Source: Phycisphaera mikurensis NBRC 102666
GTDB lineage: Bacteria; Planctomycetota; Phycisphaerae; Phycisphaerales; Phycisphaeraceae
Direction: 5' to 3'
NCBI RefSeq assembly: GCF_000284115.1
Contig: NC_017080.1
Location: forward strand, 120,001-152,000
DNA: 32,000 nt
In this document: piece by piece, positions 4,394 to 21,105 of the stretch
How the letters are laid out: each line of letters begins with the position of its first letter
How positions within the stretch are numbered: position 1 is the stretch's first letter
Position numbers and translations under genes: made by a program
Notes under the pieces: model-generated
Database searches by the model: none
Told to the model about the DNA's origin: nothing
The model's input: the letters and a program-made list of their open reading frames with translations, nothing else

Positions 4394-5133
4394 GCCCGCC
4401 CGACGAGAGCCCGAGCCCCGCCGCCCCACCCCCACGCCCGCCCCGCGCCGGCGGCGGGCTGGGCACCCGCGAGGTCGTGCTCGGCTGGTGCCTGTGGCTG
4501 ATCGGCAGCTGGGTGCTGGTGCTCGGGGCCGCCGGCGGCATCCCCGCCGCCGGCCCCACGCACCGCTGGATGAGCTTCATGGCCGCGATCGGCGTGACGG
4601 CGGTCTGGCCGGCGCTGCGCCTCTCCCAGGAAGCCCGCGACCGCCGCGGCCGGCCCACCGACGCCCCCCTCTCCCGCGGTGCGGTGCTGCTGGATTGGGT
4701 GGCCCTCAACCTGGTGTTCCAGGCGGTGCTCTGGCCGATGGCCTTCGTCGGGGGCTGGTCGCTGCCGCAGGCGTTGCTGCTGGGCGGGACGATCGCCGCC
4801 TGGTCGCTGCTCGCCGGGCTGATCGTCGCCTGGGGGCGCGCCTTCGACCGCGGCTCCGCCCGCACCGCCGCGATGGGCGGCTGCCTGGCGGTGCTCCTTC
4901 TCGAGCCGCTGGTCCTGCTCGCCGCCGTCGTCGCCCGCGGCGGCGGCTGGGGCGGCCTGCCCGACCTGCGGCTGTCCCCGCTGCAGGCCGTCTTCGCCTA
5001 CAGCGGACCCGCCGCGCGCTTCGCCCACGCCGACCCGGCCTTCGCCTCGCGGGTGCTCGGCGTGGGCGCCGCGGCCGTGCTGGGCTGGGTCATCTTTCTC
5101 CTGGCCGGCCCACGCGGCGGGCCGGGGCGTTGA
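4390..5133 (+). CDS. hypothetical polytopic membrane protein
   Basis: This is the C-terminal 247 codons of the 653-aa tracked ORF. The proposed TTG start at 4390 overlaps the upstream stop (TTGA). It has at least 6 hydrophobic helices (VVLGWCLWLIGSWVLVLGAAG, MSFMAAIGVTAVWPAL, AVLLDWVALNLVFQAVLWPMAFVGGW, and others). Alternative starts include the ATG encoding MSFMAAIG. No recognisable family. Confidence 0.55.
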   Translation: MSPPDESPSPAAPPPRPPRAGGGLGTREVVLGWCLWLIGSWVLVLGAAGGIPAAGPTHRWMSFMAAIGVTAVWPALRLSQEARDRRGRPTDAPLSRGAVLLDWVALNLVFQAVLWPMAFVGGWSLPQALLLGGTIAAWSLLAGLIVAWGRAFDRGSARTAAMGGCLAVLLLEPLVLLAAVVARGGGWGGLPDLRLSPLQAVFAYSGPAARFAHADPAFASRVLGVGAAAVLGWVIFLLAGPRGGPGR

Positions 5134-5880: not shown

Positions 5881-8279
<2,399 letters not shown>

Positions 8280-8286
<7 letters not shown>

Positions 8287-8744
8287 GCCCACCCCCTCCC
8301 GCCCCGCCCGCCTTCCGCTTGAGCACCGCGCAGAAGGTCGGCGTGTCCGCCGTGCTGATGCTCGCGGTCGCGTCGCTGGCGGCCGTGGTGGCCGCCGTGT
8401 ACTTCGACGTGACGGGCCCGTCGCCGGACGGGGCGCCCATCCTCGTGCCCGCCGGCCTGATCGCCGCCTGGTCCGCCATCGGCGTCGTCTTCGGCGTCGG
8501 GCTGCTCTCGCTGGTCCCGCCGCTGCTGCTGGCGGCCGGTTCGGCGGGCCCGCAGGCCGCGCCGCTGGGCTTCATGGCCGGGCTGATGACCCGCCTGTTC
8601 GGGACGCTGATCGGCGCCCTGGTGGGCACGCTGGGGCTCGGGCTCGCGCCGCGCCCGTTCCTCCTGACGCTGGCGGTGGTGTACGTGATGCTGCTCCCGG
8701 CAGAGCTGATCGGGCTGCCGAGGGTGAACCGCGGCGGCGACTGA
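8280..8744 (+). CDS. hypothetical small membrane protein
   Basis: 154 aa. The GTG start overlaps the topoisomerase stop (GTGGTGA). It has 4 predicted hydrophobic helices ([73 protein letters not shown]). No family recognised. Confidence 0.55.
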
Positions 8745-8806
8745 CGCGGCGACGCGGCGCCGGGCCGTCTCGGGTTCAGTCGGCGTCTACATCGGCGGAG
8801 TGGATG

Positions 8807-8945
8807 TGGCGGCTCGGGCGGACGGATGTGCTGGAAGCGGAAAACCCGCCCGGCCGCGGCTTCGGGCCGCGTCGGTTGCAATCAGCTTCCACATCGACGG
8901 AGTCGATGAGCCACCTGAGCGGGTGGCTCATCCACTCCGTGGATG
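8807..8945. repeat. repeat unit 1 (S variant A plus complete H module)
   Basis: S at 8807-8891 has the variant-A core GACGGATGTGCTGGAAGCGGAAAACCCGCCCGGCC. H at 8892-8945 is CATCGACGGAGTCGATGAGCCACCTGAGCGGGTGGCTCATCCACTCCGTGGATG. Confidence 0.9.
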
Positions 8946-9084
8946 TGGCGGCTCGGGCGAACGGAGGAGCGGGAGCGGGGAACGACGCCCGGTTGCGGCT
9001 TTGGGCCGTCTCGGTTGCAACCCGCTTCTACATCGACGGAGTCGATGAGCCACCTGAGCGGGTGGCTCGTCCACTCCGTGGATG
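8946..9084. repeat. repeat unit 2 (S variant B plus complete H module)
   Basis: S has the variant-B core AACGGAGGAGCGGGAGCGGGGAACGACGCCCGGTTG. H is complete. Confidence 0.9.
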
Positions 9085-9223
9085 TGGCGGCTCGGGCGAA
9101 CGGAGGAGCGGGAGCGGGGAACGACGCCCGGTTGCGGCTTCGGGCCGTCTCGGTTGCAACCCGCTTCTACATCGACGGAGTCGATGAGCCACCTGGGCGG
9201 GTGGCTCATCCACTACGTGGATG
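9085..9223. repeat. repeat unit 3 (S variant B plus complete H module)
   Basis: Differs from unit 2 at only a handful of positions: TTTGGG to TTCGGG, loop TGAGCG to TGGGCG, CTCG to CTCA, and TCC to TAC. Confidence 0.9.
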
Positions 9224-9362
9224 TGGCGGCTGAGGCGGACGGATGTGCTGGAAGCGGAAAACCCGCCCGGCCGCGGCTTCGGGCCGTCTCGGTTGCAATG
9301 AGCTTCTACATCGACGGAGTCGATGAGCCACCTGGGCGGGTGGCTCGTCCACTCCGTGGATG
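9224..9362. repeat. repeat unit 4 (S variant A plus complete H module)
   Basis: Same variant-A core as unit 1 (GACGGATGTGCTGGAAGCGGAAAACCCGCCCGGCC), with a few substitutions such as GCTGAGG for GCTCGGG. Confidence 0.9.
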
Positions 9363-9471
9363 TGGCGGCTCGGGCGAACGGAGGAGCGGGAGCGGGGAAC
9401 GACGCCGGATCGCGGCTTCGGGCCGTTTCGGTTGCATTCGGCTTCCACATCGACGGAGTCGATGAGCCACC
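9363..9471. repeat. repeat unit 5 (variant-B-like S, H truncated after its left arm)
   Basis: The variant-B 5' half is retained and the 3' part of S has diverged (GCCGGATCGCGG, GTTTCGGTTGCATTCGGCTTCCA). Only CATCGACGGAGTCGATGAGCCACC (9448-9471) of H is present, after which unique sequence begins. Confidence 0.85.
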
Positions 9472-9958
9472 TGCGGGCGCCGCTTCGGGCCCAAGCGCCG
9501 CGGTCCGCCCCGCTTTTCCCGTTCCCTCCCGGGTTTCTCCCCGCCCTGCCCACCCGTTTCGCCCCGCGGGCCTGTCGCGGGCGCTGTGGACAACCCCGGG
9601 CGCTGCGCACGGCGGCGCCCGAGGGAGGCGACGACCCGGACAGGCGGTGCGGCGTCCGGGATCCCCCGGCGGGTCCTGCCGCGACAGCCTCACCGGGAAC
9701 TGACGCTCTGCGCCAGCTCCCGCGACAGTTTCCACCGAGCCCCTGGGATTCACGCAAGGACCGTTCTGAAAGCAGCTTGCCCCTCGATGACCGAAGCTTT
9801 TCCCCTTGGCGCCAGCCAACAAGACGGCCTCCGGAGGATTCTCATCTGTTCCTGACTTCTTCCTCGCCCACCCGGGGAGACCGAGCCGCCCGGCGCCGCG
9901 AGGGGCATCGGCCCAACGGGTACGGTGGCTCCAGCGGGGCCGGGAAAAACTTTCAAGA

Positions 9959-9990
9959 CCCGCCCCTCCCCCGCCCCGCCCCGCCCCGCC
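9959..9990 (-). other. G-quadruplex-prone G-run tract (C-runs on the plus strand) upstream of moxR
   Basis: The plus strand reads CCC G CCCC T CCCCC G CCCC G CCCC G CCCC G CC. That is six C3-5 runs separated by single nucleotides, about 100 nt upstream of the moxR ATG at 10093. Confidence 0.6.
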
Positions 9991-10092
9991 GCGCCGCGGA
10001 TTGCGGGGCGTGCCGGCCCTCCGCGGCGGCGGTCCGCGGTCCAGGCGGCCCCGGCCCGCTCCGCCCGCTCCCCGCCCCCGTAGCGTCACCCC

Positions 10093-11157
<1,065 letters not shown>

Positions 11158-11262: not shown

Positions 11263-11733
11263 ATGACCCAGAACGCCGAGACGAAGGACGAGGCGGCGAC
11301 CGACCCGCTCGCGAAGCTCCGGGAGCAGTCCCAGGAGCCTTCCTATCTCTCCAAGCTGCGGGACCAGCGGACGCACGCGATCCTCGGCTCGGCCACGCGG
11401 GTGCACCAGACGCTGGGCCCGGGCTTCTCCGCCGCCGTCTACCGCGAGGCCCTCGCGATCGAGTTCGAGGGCCAGGCGATCCCGTTCATTGCCGAGCCGG
11501 AGCTGCCGATCCGCTACCGCGGGCGGACGCTGGGCGCCACGCACCGGGCGGCCTTCCTGTGCCACCAGCGGATCCTGCTGGAGGTCAAGGCCGAGGCGCG
11601 CACGCAGGCCTCCGCCGAGAGCCACGTGCTCAACTACCTCAAGAGCACGGGCTTCCCGCTGGGGCTGGCACTGAACTTCGGGGCCGATCGCTTTGAGTAC
11701 CGGCTGCTGATCAACGCGACGGACAGCCGGTAG
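11263..11733 (+). CDS. GxxExxY-family protein (PD-(D/E)XK-like fold), with divergent signature residues
   Basis: ATG start, 156 aa. The region ILGSATRVHQTLGPGFSAAVYREALAIEFEGQAIPF...YRG...LLEVKA...HVLNYLKSTGFPLGLALNFG follows the GxxExxY family pattern. The signature Glu is Ala here (GFSAAVY). An extra N-terminal extension of about 35 aa is rich in charged residues. Confidence 0.8.
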   Translation: MTQNAETKDEAATDPLAKLREQSQEPSYLSKLRDQRTHAILGSATRVHQTLGPGFSAAVYREALAIEFEGQAIPFIAEPELPIRYRGRTLGATHRAAFLCHQRILLEVKAEARTQASAESHVLNYLKSTGFPLGLALNFGADRFEYRLLINATDSR

Positions 11734-19884: not shown

Positions 19885-21105
19885 GTGCCGCACGCCATGA
19901 TCCACCCCCCGCACGCCTTCCTCGCTCAGGCCGCCGACGCCGGCGCAGCGTCCTGGTTCGCCTGGGCCGCCGACCAGGCGCTGGCGCTGACGATCCTGGT
20001 CATCTTCGGGGGGGCGATCCTCTCCGCGGTGCTCACGCAGTGGCGGCGCGACAAGTGCCTGAAGCTGCTGCGCGGCGATCACGCGACGGTCGTGCGGCTC
20101 GACGGCGGCGTCCTCTGGGGTGACCTGATCGTCTACCCCAAGGCCCTGGAGCTCACCTTCGACGCGCCCTTCGTCACGACGCGCGGGCTCGTCAAGAGCG
20201 GGGTGATGCTGCCTGAGGCGGACGTCGCCGGCGTGCACCTCGTCGCCCGCTCCGCCGCCGGTCTCACCCCCGCCGAGCAGCGGCACCGCGAGTCGCAGAT
20301 CCGGCGGACCTTCCGGCCCGGCCTGCTGCGTCGCTGGCTGCGGACCGGGCGGAACCTGCTCAACACGCTCCGCGACGCCTTCGGGAAGGCGCTCTCGGCG
20401 ATCCTCTCGGCGGTCACGCGCAACCCGCGGGCCGCGGCGCTGGCGGACCAGAAGGCGGGGGTGGAGGGCATCGGGCAGCAGCTCATCGGGGCCGCGGGCA
20501 ACGCCTACGACCCGCTGCTGGAGGCGCACGTCGGGCGGCCGGTCGTCGTGAAGCTTCGCTGCCCGGGTCTCTCCAAGCCCGAGGCGCCGGTGGCGGTCGA
20601 CGTGCCCGGGTACCTGGTCGACTACTCCGACGCGTGGATCGCCGTGTTCAACGTCGACCACACGCCGCTGGAGGCTCTGACGCTGGAGGCGACCGCTGGC
20701 CAGCCCGCCGACGCGGACCCGCGGGTGAGCGTGACGAAGTCGCCCGCGGGTCGCCTGGGCGTGCGCAACCCGGGCCCGGCCTTCGTGCTGGTCCGCAGCG
20801 TCGACGGCGAAGGGGATCCCGCCGGGGCCGGCGGCGACGCGGCCGACCTCGACGCCGTGGTGCCGCCGGGGGCCACGCTCTGGCTCGGCGTCGATCCCGC
20901 GGGGAGCACCCGCGTGCGGCTGGAGCTGACCGAGCGCCTGGACCTGGTCATCCCGCGCGGGCAGGTCGTCGTGCGCCACGCCGGCGACCGCGTCGAGGAT
21001 CCACGCCGCGGCCGGCCGGCGCGTGCCCGGGGGCTCGCCCCGCGCGACGCGGGGGCGGGGGGCCACGAGCCGCCGGGACAACCCACGCCCGCTACCGCCG
21101 GCTGA
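19885..21105 (+). CDS. hypothetical membrane-anchored protein
   Basis: 406 aa from the GTG at 19885, or from the ATG at 19897 (MIHPPHAF). One N-terminal TM helix (ALALTILVIFGGAILSAVL), followed by a non-repetitive domain with normal amino-acid composition (KCLKLLRGDHATVVRLDGGVLWGDLIVYPKALELTF...YLVDYSDAWIAVFNVDH). No family recognised. The Arg/Pro-rich C-terminus overlaps the convergent gene by 14 nt. Confidence 0.55.
   Translation: MPHAMIHPPHAFLAQAADAGAASWFAWAADQALALTILVIFGGAILSAVLTQWRRDKCLKLLRGDHATVVRLDGGVLWGDLIVYPKALELTFDAPFVTTRGLVKSGVMLPEADVAGVHLVARSAAGLTPAEQRHRESQIRRTFRPGLLRRWLRTGRNLLNTLRDAFGKALSAILSAVTRNPRAAALADQKAGVEGIGQQLIGAAGNAYDPLLEAHVGRPVVVKLRCPGLSKPEAPVAVDVPGYLVDYSDAWIAVFNVDHTPLEALTLEATAGQPADADPRVSVTKSPAGRLGVRNPGPAFVLVRSVDGEGDPAGAGGDAADLDAVVPPGATLWLGVDPAGSTRVRLELTERLDLVIPRGQVVVRHAGDRVEDPRRGRPARARGLAPRDAGAGGHEPPGQPTPATAG

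Follow-up and report, generated by a model that had tools for sequence, protein, structure and literature searches.

A tandem array in Phycisphaera mikurensis, probably a cluster of dispersed REP/REPIN-like repeats

Introduction

Canonically, the REPs of E. coli and Pseudomonas carry a GTAG or CGTC tag 5' of the hairpin. In REPs of the two large superfamilies, "tagged at one end", G-T pairs are frequent, stems measure 6-9 bp and loops 2-3 nt, and dimers are reiterated in tandem together with flanking DNA (PMC3733652). GTAG- and CGTC-tagged REPs have also been reported from the Planctomycetes-Verrucomicrobia-Chlamydiae superphylum (Di Nocera et al. 2013, PMC3733652). REPINs form ordered tandem clusters that include flanking sequence, the largest of which comprises four REPINs and one REP and exceeds 700 bp (PMC3116915). 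Class 3 TnpA(Y1) "REPtron-like" systems occur mainly in Planctomycetes and Acidobacteria, and Y1-associated hairpin repeats can reach high copy number (PMC6006769). P. mikurensis was not found in the text or the searchable supplements of the latter paper.

Here, we analyze a tandem array in a 32,000-nt stretch of the Phycisphaera mikurensis NBRC 102666 chromosome ("the window", to whose first letter all positions refer unless another locus is named). A preliminary description of the array had matched it to no known kind of element, a verdict that the dispersed, REP/MITE-like copies reported below largely overturn. With a probability of roughly 0.6, the array consists of tandem copies of a REP/REPIN/BIME-like repeat that is dispersed, non-coding and hairpin-forming and that is carried by P. 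mikurensis and its relatives.

Results

The window locus corresponds to PSMK_01210-01250, in a genome with a GC content of 76%. Tandem Repeats Finder placed the array at 8800-9473 (period 139, 4.8 copies, 89% matches, score 1036). Five starts of the motif GGATGTGGCGGCT, at 8802, 8941, 9080, 9219 and 9358, reproduced the exact 139-bp spacing that had first been described, and a repeat search of the window returned start-to-start distances of exactly 139, 139 and 139 for the array units. When up to three mismatches were allowed across the whole 32 kb, a 25-nt arm occurred nine times, always within the array (expectation from shuffles, 0.00). The array is preceded by the degenerate partial unit noted earlier, a half element that adjoins the stop codon of a membrane-protein gene and lacks the center of its palindrome. 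The hairpin at 8790-8806 combines the 5' half of a left arm with the 3' half of a right arm, indicating that about 35 nt were deleted across one junction. At the opposite end, the array stops just past a left arm, at 9471-9473, again as described. The features of the locus are as follows:

8283-8744, plus strand: PSMK_01220, small membrane protein, upstream flank (GC3 0.97; overlaps the topoisomerase IV subunit A gene at 5881-8286)
8744-8801, plus strand: degenerate leading half element, element positions 64-121 (nhmmer E = 1.3e-4; repeat family D2, 63-73% identity)
8800-8915, plus strand: element E0, type A center, 5' arm truncated (element positions 18-133, nhmmer E = 3.8e-29)
8922-9054, plus strand: element E1, 133 nt, type B center, running from GGTGGCTCATCCAC... 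to ...GTCGATGAGCCACC (positions 1-133, nhmmer E = 2.7e-34)
9061-9193, plus strand: element E2, 133 nt, type B center (nhmmer E = 6.9e-34)
9200-9332, plus strand: element E3, 133 nt, type A center (nhmmer E = 2.6e-36)
9339-9471, plus strand: element E4, 133 nt, type B center, the last one, whose outer terminus ...GAGCCACC(TG) closes the array (nhmmer E = 3e-33)
8916-8921, 9055-9060, 9194-9199 and 9333-9338, no strand assigned: 6-nt linker TGAGCG or TGGGCG joining the elements, read from the sequence
8920-8950, 9059-9089, 9198-9228 and 9337-9367, plus strand: right-type arm, GGTGGCT head and hairpin CATCCAC-TCC-GTGGATG (covariance model R1, 45-50 bits, E about 1e-8)
8887-8917, 9026-9056, 9165-9195, 9304-9334 and 9443-9473, minus strand: left-type arm, head-first on this strand as GGTGGCT and CATCGAC-TCC-GTCGATG, then GT(A/G)G (R1, 54-55 bits, E about 1e-9)
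10093-11157, plus strand: PSMK_01240 (BAM02283.1), MoxR-type AAA ATPase, downstream flank, 620 bp past the array (Pfam AAA_3 at 3.8e-61)

The array is non-coding, as had been proposed: GC content hardly differs among the three codon positions in any frame (0.64-0.71; GC3 is 0.97-0.98 in the flanking genes), and stops are present in all frames. Type I toxin-antitoxin repeats and a small-peptide gene were likewise dropped, given that neither a conserved ORF nor a codon signal was seen. The predicted protein PSMK_01230 (BAM02282.1) of the finished NBRC 102666 chromosome is an exact translation of window positions 9031-9819 on the minus strand and spans 3.2 units. The tandem structure over these units is therefore no assembly artefact, an explanation that the preliminary description had left to be checked; this independent confirmation covers only 3.2 of the 4.8 array units. 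The Logan short-read assembly is interrupted at 8846 and 9447, which is expected of a repeat.

The units fall into two types, 1 and 4 versus 2, 3 and 5, which are about 85% identical. Units 2 and 3, correctly described as nearly identical, differ at 4 of 139 positions, and units 1 and 4 share 94% identity. Variable columns within the array are unevenly distributed, with 4 of 64 in the arms and linker versus 24 of 75 in the center (Fisher p = 2e-4).

Each unit had earlier been divided into an 85-nt segment S and a 54-nt palindromic module H. This division proved unnatural. Rather than one palindrome, module H comprises three adjacent ones (CATCGAC-GGA-GTCGATG, AGCCACC-TGAGCG-GGTGGCT and CATCCAC-TCC-GTGGATG), the central one being formed by the linker and the neighboring arm heads, and the natural unit boundary lies in the middle of the module. 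Cross-species comparison gives a 133-nt element plus a linker of variable length instead, and on this sequence evidence the conserved entity is the 133-nt element, with inverted arms at both ends, rather than the 139-bp unit. The element measures exactly 133 nt in the four complete window copies and in five of the six copies at L034, a locus of a related metagenomic organism; the sixth L034 copy has 132 nt, and apart from that one position the window and L034 elements align free of gaps. The linker varies in length, with 6 nt in the window array, 8 nt at PSMK_04550 and 98 nt in the L034 array.

Every arm consists of the 7-nt head GGTGGCT and a hairpin whose 7-bp stem is closed by a 3-nt loop. 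The head forms the invariant 5' flank of the hairpin, and GT(A/G)G is found on the 3' side of the hairpin. The inverted arms are 25-32 nt long and 88% complementary. Over the 4.8 repeats, right-type arms (CAC/GTG stem) alternate with left-type arms (GAC/GTC stem), separated by linkers of 6 nt and 85 nt, and the left-type arm is invariant in all five of its copies in the array. The center of the element is more variable in sequence and fixed in length. Beside one arm lies a conserved, non-palindromic block, TCGGTTGCAAT, which is invariant and asymmetric. It lends the element a polarity for which a simple REP doublet has no need. The termini, GGTGGCTC ... GAGCCACC, are sharp and conserved at the array ends, in a half element and in a solo arm at other loci.

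The arms are maintained as hairpins through compensatory changes. Among 15 distinct arms, the hairpin cells were paired in 100% of cases, and two stem pairs were changed on both sides (G-C/C-G and A-U/U-A, or A-T/T-A in DNA); none of 500 shuffles reached the observed values. Pairing from arm to arm was 83% only, with two positions that almost never pair, and the two arms differ from each other precisely at the co-varying stem positions.

The element occupies several unrelated intergenic sites, and its presence or absence varies by site among related genomes. In P. mikurensis it was found at no fewer than five loci (the window, a half element at L039, PSMK_04550, PSMK_06030 and PSMK_09380), and every site seen is intergenic. 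The half element at L039 2749-2818, 6.8 kb upstream of the window, was recovered with E = 2e-16. Amino-acid identity to translated window units is 68-79% for PSMK_06030, 57-62% for PSMK_09380 and 44-59% for PSMK_04550, which has a 141-bp period; the PSMK_04550 and PSMK_06030 copies are known from protein translations, not DNA. Full-length 133-nt homologues at other loci and in another organism matched with E = 1e-33 to 1e-37. L034 carries an array of 231 bp x 5.7 and a solo arm at 20645-20675. In about 160 kb of Phycisphaera-like DNA, the only occurrences were two arrays, a half element and a solo arm, a density that looks low for a classical REP.

The gene neighbors of the copies differ at every site: topoisomerase IV and MoxR genes at one, an NHL-like gene and an epimerase gene at another, and a sulfotransferase and a tRNA-Val gene at a third. 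The position beside the topoisomerase IV gene is therefore probably a coincidence, and a functional link to that gene was dropped. The array is absent from this site in two relatives whose topoisomerase IV A, membrane-protein, MoxR and PDDEXK_3 genes follow one another in the same order. Because the intergenic regions of these species hardly align with one another, no clean empty site or target-site duplication could be defined.

Beyond these copies, an arm-pattern scan of the genome collection gave no P. mikurensis matches and 21 single chance matches in unrelated phyla; it excludes only exact-pattern arms in the other species represented. The central-hairpin pattern retrieved nothing from viral sequences and, from metagenomes, only ordinary terminator hairpins with homology confined to the stem. 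Neither the plasmid nor the phage collection yielded a BLAST match. About 51 kb of P. mikurensis sequence and about 55 kb from relatives contained no RAYT or other transposase, and the gene lists of the loci read contained no Y1_Tnp match. CRISPR was ruled out, in agreement with the preliminary description, since the segments between the palindromes are 82-97% conserved. The sole CRISPR-DR match lies outside the array and is a chance one (E = 2.1), and no cas domain was found among the window proteins scanned or in the Pfam lists for called genes of most of the window.

Discussion

The anatomy of the element is that of a REPIN, with two REP-type palindromes in inverted orientation. Under the REP/REPIN/BIME-like reading, the element would spread via a single-stranded intermediate recognized by a transposase encoded elsewhere, either a RAYT or another Y1/HUH enzyme. 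Unequal recombination or replication slippage may then have multiplied the element and its short linker at the window locus. The succession of unit types, A-B-B-A-B, suggests the order of these events: one A unit and one B unit would have come first, B would have been duplicated, and a 417-bp block would then have been repeated. The resulting stack of stem-loops lies directly 3' of the stop of the topoisomerase IV A/membrane-protein operon, and by analogy with what is reported for REP elements, any effect on the host would probably be that of a barrier at the transcript 3' end or of a terminator. Several observations speak against the REP/REPIN/BIME-like reading: no transposase in the roughly 51 kb and 55 kb of sequence examined, no GTAG/CGTC tag 5' of the hairpin, a copy density that looks low, no definable target-site duplication or clean empty site, and the polarity conferred by TCGGTTGCAAT. 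Of the three roles that had been suggested for the array, the REP/BIME-like one is favored by the evidence; tandem copies of an sRNA or 3'-UTR element, though conceivable, lack support, and a multi-site protein-binding platform is not supported, since covariation at the stem positions leaves no single sequence to be bound.

An alternative that we consider unlikely is that the 133-nt element is a MITE. It would then descend by deletion from an insertion sequence whose terminal inverted repeats read CAGGTGGCTCATC..., would have been moved by the DDE transposase of that sequence and would later have been amplified in tandem. Its length is typical of MITEs, it possesses inverted arms of about 25-31 nt and sharp, conserved termini, and it occupies non-orthologous positions in related genomes. 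However, the arms are palindromes kept by compensatory changes, which recognition of terminal repeats in double-stranded DNA does not require, and it is exactly at the co-varying stem positions that the two arms diverge. Target-site duplications were not evident at the array ends, the half element or the solo arm, a sample of few ends, and the sequence examined contained no parent insertion sequence with matching terminal repeats.

It is similarly doubtful that the repeat is a structured RNA family, comprising sRNA genes or 3'-UTR modules, in which transcribed elements close a long stem with their arms and tandem copies raise the dose or stabilize the upstream mRNA. Several observations would fit this explanation. 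Whichever strand is taken, each element is predicted to fold by itself into a long hairpin (z = -4 to -6; E1, -77.9 kcal/mol, z = -6.4; E3, -75.3 kcal/mol, z = -5.6), and the whole array reaches z = -12; the stems tolerate G-U pairs; the length is conserved exactly, together with the asymmetric block TCGGTTGCAAT; and the two arrays and the solo arm lie 0-36 nt past a stop codon, sense to the upstream gene. Against it, the half element at L039 is antisense to its flanking genes, the element is non-syntenic between relatives and no neighboring gene is conserved. The three G-U wobbles lie on the head-first strand of each arm, that is, on opposite strands for the two arm types, and pairing in the element center is weakly supported. 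The better-folding strand is plus in P. mikurensis and minus in the relative, a reversal that led us to drop a strand-specific RNA suggested by the folding asymmetry in P. mikurensis.

Searches for RNA models point the same way. Consistent with the earlier failure to place the unit in any Rfam family, no match at the gathering score was obtained in the window or for the L034 array. Sub-threshold matches at a permissive E-value involved miRNA-precursor models only (34.8 bits, where 100 are needed) and reflect the generic long hairpin. An ARAGORN search of the window for tRNA and tmRNA was negative. Neither a model match nor an associated gene backed a Y-RNA, retron or tRNA-like element, and these ideas were dropped. 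A scan for promoter and terminator consensus sequences found nothing, a result that is weakly informative at 76% GC.

A further and comparably improbable explanation is that the element is a Phycisphaerae-specific replicator not described before or, alternatively, a new structured RNA, in which the exact length of 133 nt and the invariant TCGGTTGCAAT would stem from a role in the host. In such a replicator, the GGTGGCT foot could replace GTAG/CGTC, and the elements could form head-to-tail concatemers with junctions of 2-8 nt. Copying could proceed through a circular single-stranded intermediate, by an unrecognized Y1/HUH enzyme, perhaps of class 3.

Far less probable is a platform for double-stranded DNA binding or recombination, such as a centromere-like array or a set of core sites for Xer/tyrosine recombinases. 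The array does offer nine palindromic sites at regular spacing, and its junction, GATGAGCCACC-6 nt-GGTGGCTCATC, is arranged 11-6-11 like a dif-type site, with an 8-nt spacer at PSMK_04550. This junction is not conserved, however, with the arms lying 98 nt apart in the L034 array, and an Xer/dif-type core site was dropped on that ground. Moreover, the co-varying arm stems keep no single sequence, arrays occur at several unrelated loci, and no partition or recombinase gene is nearby. Finally, a local minisatellite, in which slippage duplicated a terminator hairpin with its flank and any resemblance elsewhere is chance, would suit the higher-order A-B-B-A-B pattern, the degenerate first unit and the occurrence of GATGAGCCACC...GGTGGCTCATC hairpins as ordinary terminators in unrelated metagenome contigs, but it is already contradicted by the element homologues at other loci, including the full-length and half-element matches and the three further annotated ORFs of the P. 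mikurensis genome that are translations of the repeat.

If the REPIN/BIME reading is true, this type of repeat extends to the class Phycisphaerae, with a foot that differs from those of the two large tagged superfamilies, and it would offer a way to track down the enzyme behind its spread in Planctomycetes. At least four "hypothetical proteins" (PSMK_01230, PSMK_04550, PSMK_06030 and PSMK_09380) are translations of the repeat and should leave the protein databases. Short-read assemblies break at arrays of this kind, which could be used as variable-number markers in strain typing.

MITEs such as Correia/NEMIS and ERIC resemble the element in size (about 100-150 bp), terminal inverted repeats, lack of coding capacity, intergenic location and folding into a long hairpin; unlike it, they have target-site duplications, are rarely in tandem and carry terminal repeats that are not compensated palindromes. 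The structures of class 3 TnpA(Y1) systems, known from the same phylum, carry a 5' CnGA foot (PMC6006769), which the P. mikurensis arms lack.

With the tagged REPs (PMC3733652), the repeat shares the stem and loop lengths, the G-T pairs, sub-families with alternative complementary stem residues, dimers spaced 1-100 bp apart and tandem clusters that take in flanking DNA. In contrast to them, GTAG/CGTC is absent from the canonical position: on the head-first strand, GT(A/G)G lies 3' of the hairpin and the 5' flank is GGTGGCT. The BIMEs of E. coli, especially the tandem BIME-2 (general background; PMC3733652, PMC3116915), likewise consist of opposed palindromic units of two subtypes. They also share with the window array short and long conserved linkers, a head-to-tail arrangement and an intergenic or 3'-UTR location; the window unit is longer (139 bp), its long linker measures 85 nt, and there is no sequence similarity.

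Unlike REPINs (PMC3116915), the P. mikurensis elements have no 5' GTAG tag, and no RAYT was identified in the sequence examined. They also differ from those of Pseudomonas fluorescens SBW25 in a copy density that appears much lower, in their Phycisphaerae host and in abutting with only a 6-8-nt linker. As in REPINs, an inverted palindromic pair at a fixed distance forms a long hairpin, the elements are extragenic and dispersed, singlets occur as apparent remnants, and nearly identical elements are arranged in tandem with flanking sequence. The window array is of nearly equal size and form to the largest REPIN cluster described, in SBW25 (Bertels and Rainey 2011, PMC3116915). Tandem REPIN clusters of matching size and form are thus already known, and the array represents no new kind of biology.

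The array and its genomic setting

Tandem Repeats Finder placed the array at 8800-9473, with a period of 139, 4.8 copies, 89% matches and a score of 1036, and a repeat search returned copy spacings of exactly 139, 139 and 139, along with a sixth, degenerate copy upstream. The array first described from sequence alone is thus real, including its exact spacing and its degenerate leading unit. A 25-nt arm motif occurs nine times, each time within the array, while shuffles predict 0.00 copies. The units are of two types: units 1 and 4 (type A, 94% identical to one another) and units 2, 3 and 5 (type B, 92-97% identical among themselves), with ~85% identity between types. The array therefore reads A-B-B-A-B, with a higher-order period of 417 bp. 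It is flanked by the following genes:

PSMK_01210, topoisomerase IV subunit A
PSMK_01220, small membrane protein, stop at 8744
PSMK_01240, MoxR ATPase, start at 10093
PSMK_01250, PDDEXK_3 protein

As the preliminary description held, the array is non-coding: its codon-position GC is flat (0.64-0.71 in all frames) and stops occur in each frame; the GC3 of the flanking genes is 0.97-0.98, and the window GC is 75.6% overall. The supposed lack of a known family also held at the Rfam gathering score, where the array had no matches. Sub-threshold matches were to miRNA-precursor models only, caused by the long hairpin, and no tRNA or tmRNA was found.

The window sequence matches contig JACHEL010000005.1 of GCA_014207395.1 exactly, and its proteins are named Phycisphaera mikurensis. 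The Logan short-read assembly of this species is interrupted at 8846 and 9447, as expected where a repeat lies. In the NBRC 102666 chromosome, which was finished independently, PSMK_01230 (BAM02282.1) is annotated as a protein that exactly matches the minus-strand translation of 9031-9819, so a second assembly holds at least 3.2 of the 4.8 units, a total that comes from the draft assembly alone.

A 133-nt element bounded by hairpin arms

A metagenome ORF led to a second array (L034); its sample also yielded L025, a relative with 89% MoxR identity to the window. An NHL-like gene and an epimerase gene flank this array (231 bp x 5.7). Aligning the two arrays revealed that the conserved part is a gap-free element of exactly 133 nt, which starts with GGTGGCTCATCCAC(Y)CCGTGGATG and ends with TCGGTTGCAAT..AGC..C.ACATCG.CGG.G.CGATGAGCCACC. 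The linker between elements varies, from 6 nt in the window and 8 nt in PSMK_04550 to 98 nt in L034. Consequently, the 54-nt palindromic module initially taken as part of the unit is the junction of two adjacent elements, and its non-conserved central 11-6-11 palindrome is a by-product of tight packing. Within the window array, 4 of 64 columns vary in the arms and linker and 24 of 75 in the centre (p = 2e-4).

Read from the outer end inward, an arm has the form C(A/G)-GGTGGCT-CATCNNC-NCC-GNNGATG-T(A/G)G. Its 7-bp stem is paired in 100% of cells across 15 distinct arms from two species (a solo arm and a half element among them), and two stem pairs have changed on both sides (G-C/C-G and, at the next position, A-U/U-A). 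None of 500 shuffles reached these pairing and covariation values. The two arms of one element differ exactly at the co-varying positions (CAC/GTG versus GAC/GTC in P. mikurensis, and versus GTC/GAC in the relative). Accordingly, arm-to-arm pairing is only 83%, with two positions nearly never paired, compared with 98.7% for the local hairpins in the same alignment. The loop, TCC or CCC, is alike in both arms within a species. Three G-U wobbles, too few for significance, all lie on the strand on which their own arm reads head (GGTGGCT) first, plus for right arms and minus for a left arm; this pattern is more consistent with a 5'-footed hairpin read in single-stranded nucleic acid than with one transcript.

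Copies at other loci

To find similar DNA annotated as spurious ORFs, we queried protein databases with translations of the array. The search matched one ORF on an ENA metagenome contig and three P. mikurensis "hypothetical proteins": PSMK_06030 (68-79% identical to the translated window units), PSMK_04550 (44-59%; its repeat period of 47 residues equals 141 bp) and PSMK_09380 (57-62%). Since identity never reaches 100% and the locus tags are far from PSMK_0123, these three are diverged copies at other loci. Together with PSMK_01230, they stand in the finished genome annotation, UniRef and nr; all four are annotation artefacts, translations of a non-coding repeat.

When the P. mikurensis sequence was extended ~10 kb to either side of the window, a half element (element positions 64-133, E = 2e-16) came to light at 2749-2818 of the upstream sequence L039, 6.8 kb before window position 1. 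It is flanked by a sulfotransferase gene, whose stop it follows by ~40 nt, and by tRNA-Val(TAC) (L039 2651-2724), 25 nt away, and is antisense to both genes. The solo arm in L034 lies 7 nt past the stop of another gene. An arm covariance model found no further copies in ~160 kb of Phycisphaera-like DNA, so density is low, and copy number may be low as well.

Two relatives (L025 and L035) keep the gene order topoisomerase IV A, membrane protein, MoxR, PDDEXK_3, and neither has an array or arm at the corresponding site, where alignment across species is limited to the gene ends and a few islands preceding MoxR. Overall, the element is dispersed and non-coding, its neighbours are inconstant and its sites differ among related genomes. 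A purely local minisatellite is contradicted by the homologues elsewhere. Across the genome collection, no other species matched the arm pattern; the lack of a hit from P. mikurensis means that it is absent or masked there. The central hairpin pattern matched only ordinary terminators in metagenomes and nothing in viral contigs, and BLAST of the array units against plasmid and phage collections gave no match.

The array-MoxR spacer and related loci

The 620-bp spacer that separates the array from the MoxR start contains conserved non-coding islands at 9586-9625, 9792-9836, 9906-9949 and 10056-10092, also present at L035 9467-9715 and L025 9567-9806. They can be aligned in four related contigs while the rest of the spacer cannot, and had no match in Rfam; candidate identities are a leader of MoxR, a small RNA, and promoter or regulator sites. 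Repeated palindromic TGGCGCCA motifs occur there in the relatives, and the GC falls to 0.65. Within sequence of 81% GC, ~100 nt before the MoxR start codon, lies a CCCGC pentanucleotide run (9959-9995, 7.2 copies).

Directly 3' of MoxR (window 11263-11733), P. mikurensis, L025 and L035 encode PDDEXK_3 (GxxExxY), and a more distant relative has a 23S_rRNA_IVP four-helix-bundle gene in that slot (L026 11197-11577); both are small genes known from variable positions. Just upstream of its topoisomerase IV A gene, L025 (3469-5348) carries two tandem VapBC-like modules, each a small ORF plus a PIN-domain gene, that are absent from the P. mikurensis window. Its membrane-protein gene (8328-9161) is called at 277 aa versus 153 aa in P. 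mikurensis; nothing corresponds to the additional C-terminal stretch, which probably reflects an ORF running on into GC-rich non-coding DNA. In the metagenome contig L030 (Ga0194035_1003774), 111 bp comprising a tRNA 3' end and an intrinsic terminator are duplicated in tandem (4835-5060); the terminator stem GATGAGCCACC/GGTGGCTCATC is a chance likeness with no relation to the element outside the stem.

Alternative explanations

A MITE is a possible reading, given the sharp termini and inverted arms, but no target duplication was seen, and recognition of terminal repeats leaves palindromic, co-varying arms unexplained. A structured RNA family would account for the exact length, the invariant asymmetric block and the copies just past stop codons. 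It is the less probable reading, in that the element lacks synteny, one copy is antisense and the strand preference in folding is inconsistent: on each strand, a lone element folds into a single long, imperfect hairpin (z = -4 to -6), better on plus in P. mikurensis and on minus in the relative, and there is little support for a conserved fold at the centre. Lack of conservation at the 11-6-11 junction and covariation of the arm stems make a platform for double-stranded DNA binding or recombination unlikely.

Comparison with known repeats

Among the roles first proposed, the most ordinary one, a REP/BIME-like array, is best supported; there is a small residual chance that the array marks an undescribed replicator or RNA. 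As a REP/REPIN/BIME-type repeat, the element would spread when a transposase encoded elsewhere acts on a single-stranded intermediate, and the window cluster may have grown through unequal recombination or slippage. By analogy with REP elements, the array could plausibly serve the upstream operon as a 3'-end barrier or terminator.

The match to known REPs is incomplete: the arms lack the canonical 5' GTAG/CGTC tag. According to PMC6006769, class 3 Y1 transposases occur mainly in Planctomycetes and their hairpins carry a CnGA foot, which is not seen in these arms; the searchable text and supplements of that paper do not mention this species. As in REP/REPIN/BIME repeats, however, two inverted hairpin units lie at a fixed distance, the element ranges from half elements and singlets to ordered tandem clusters, and its hairpins are kept via compensatory change. 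This matches the description of REPs as having stems of 6-9 bp, loops of 2-3 nt, alternative complementary stem residues and G-T pairs, with dimers reiterated in tandem together with flanking DNA (PMC3733652). The best-supported reading is therefore that the array is a new member of a recognised type of bacterial repeat; its foot sequence is unusual, and REP-type repeats have so far been little described in its phylum.
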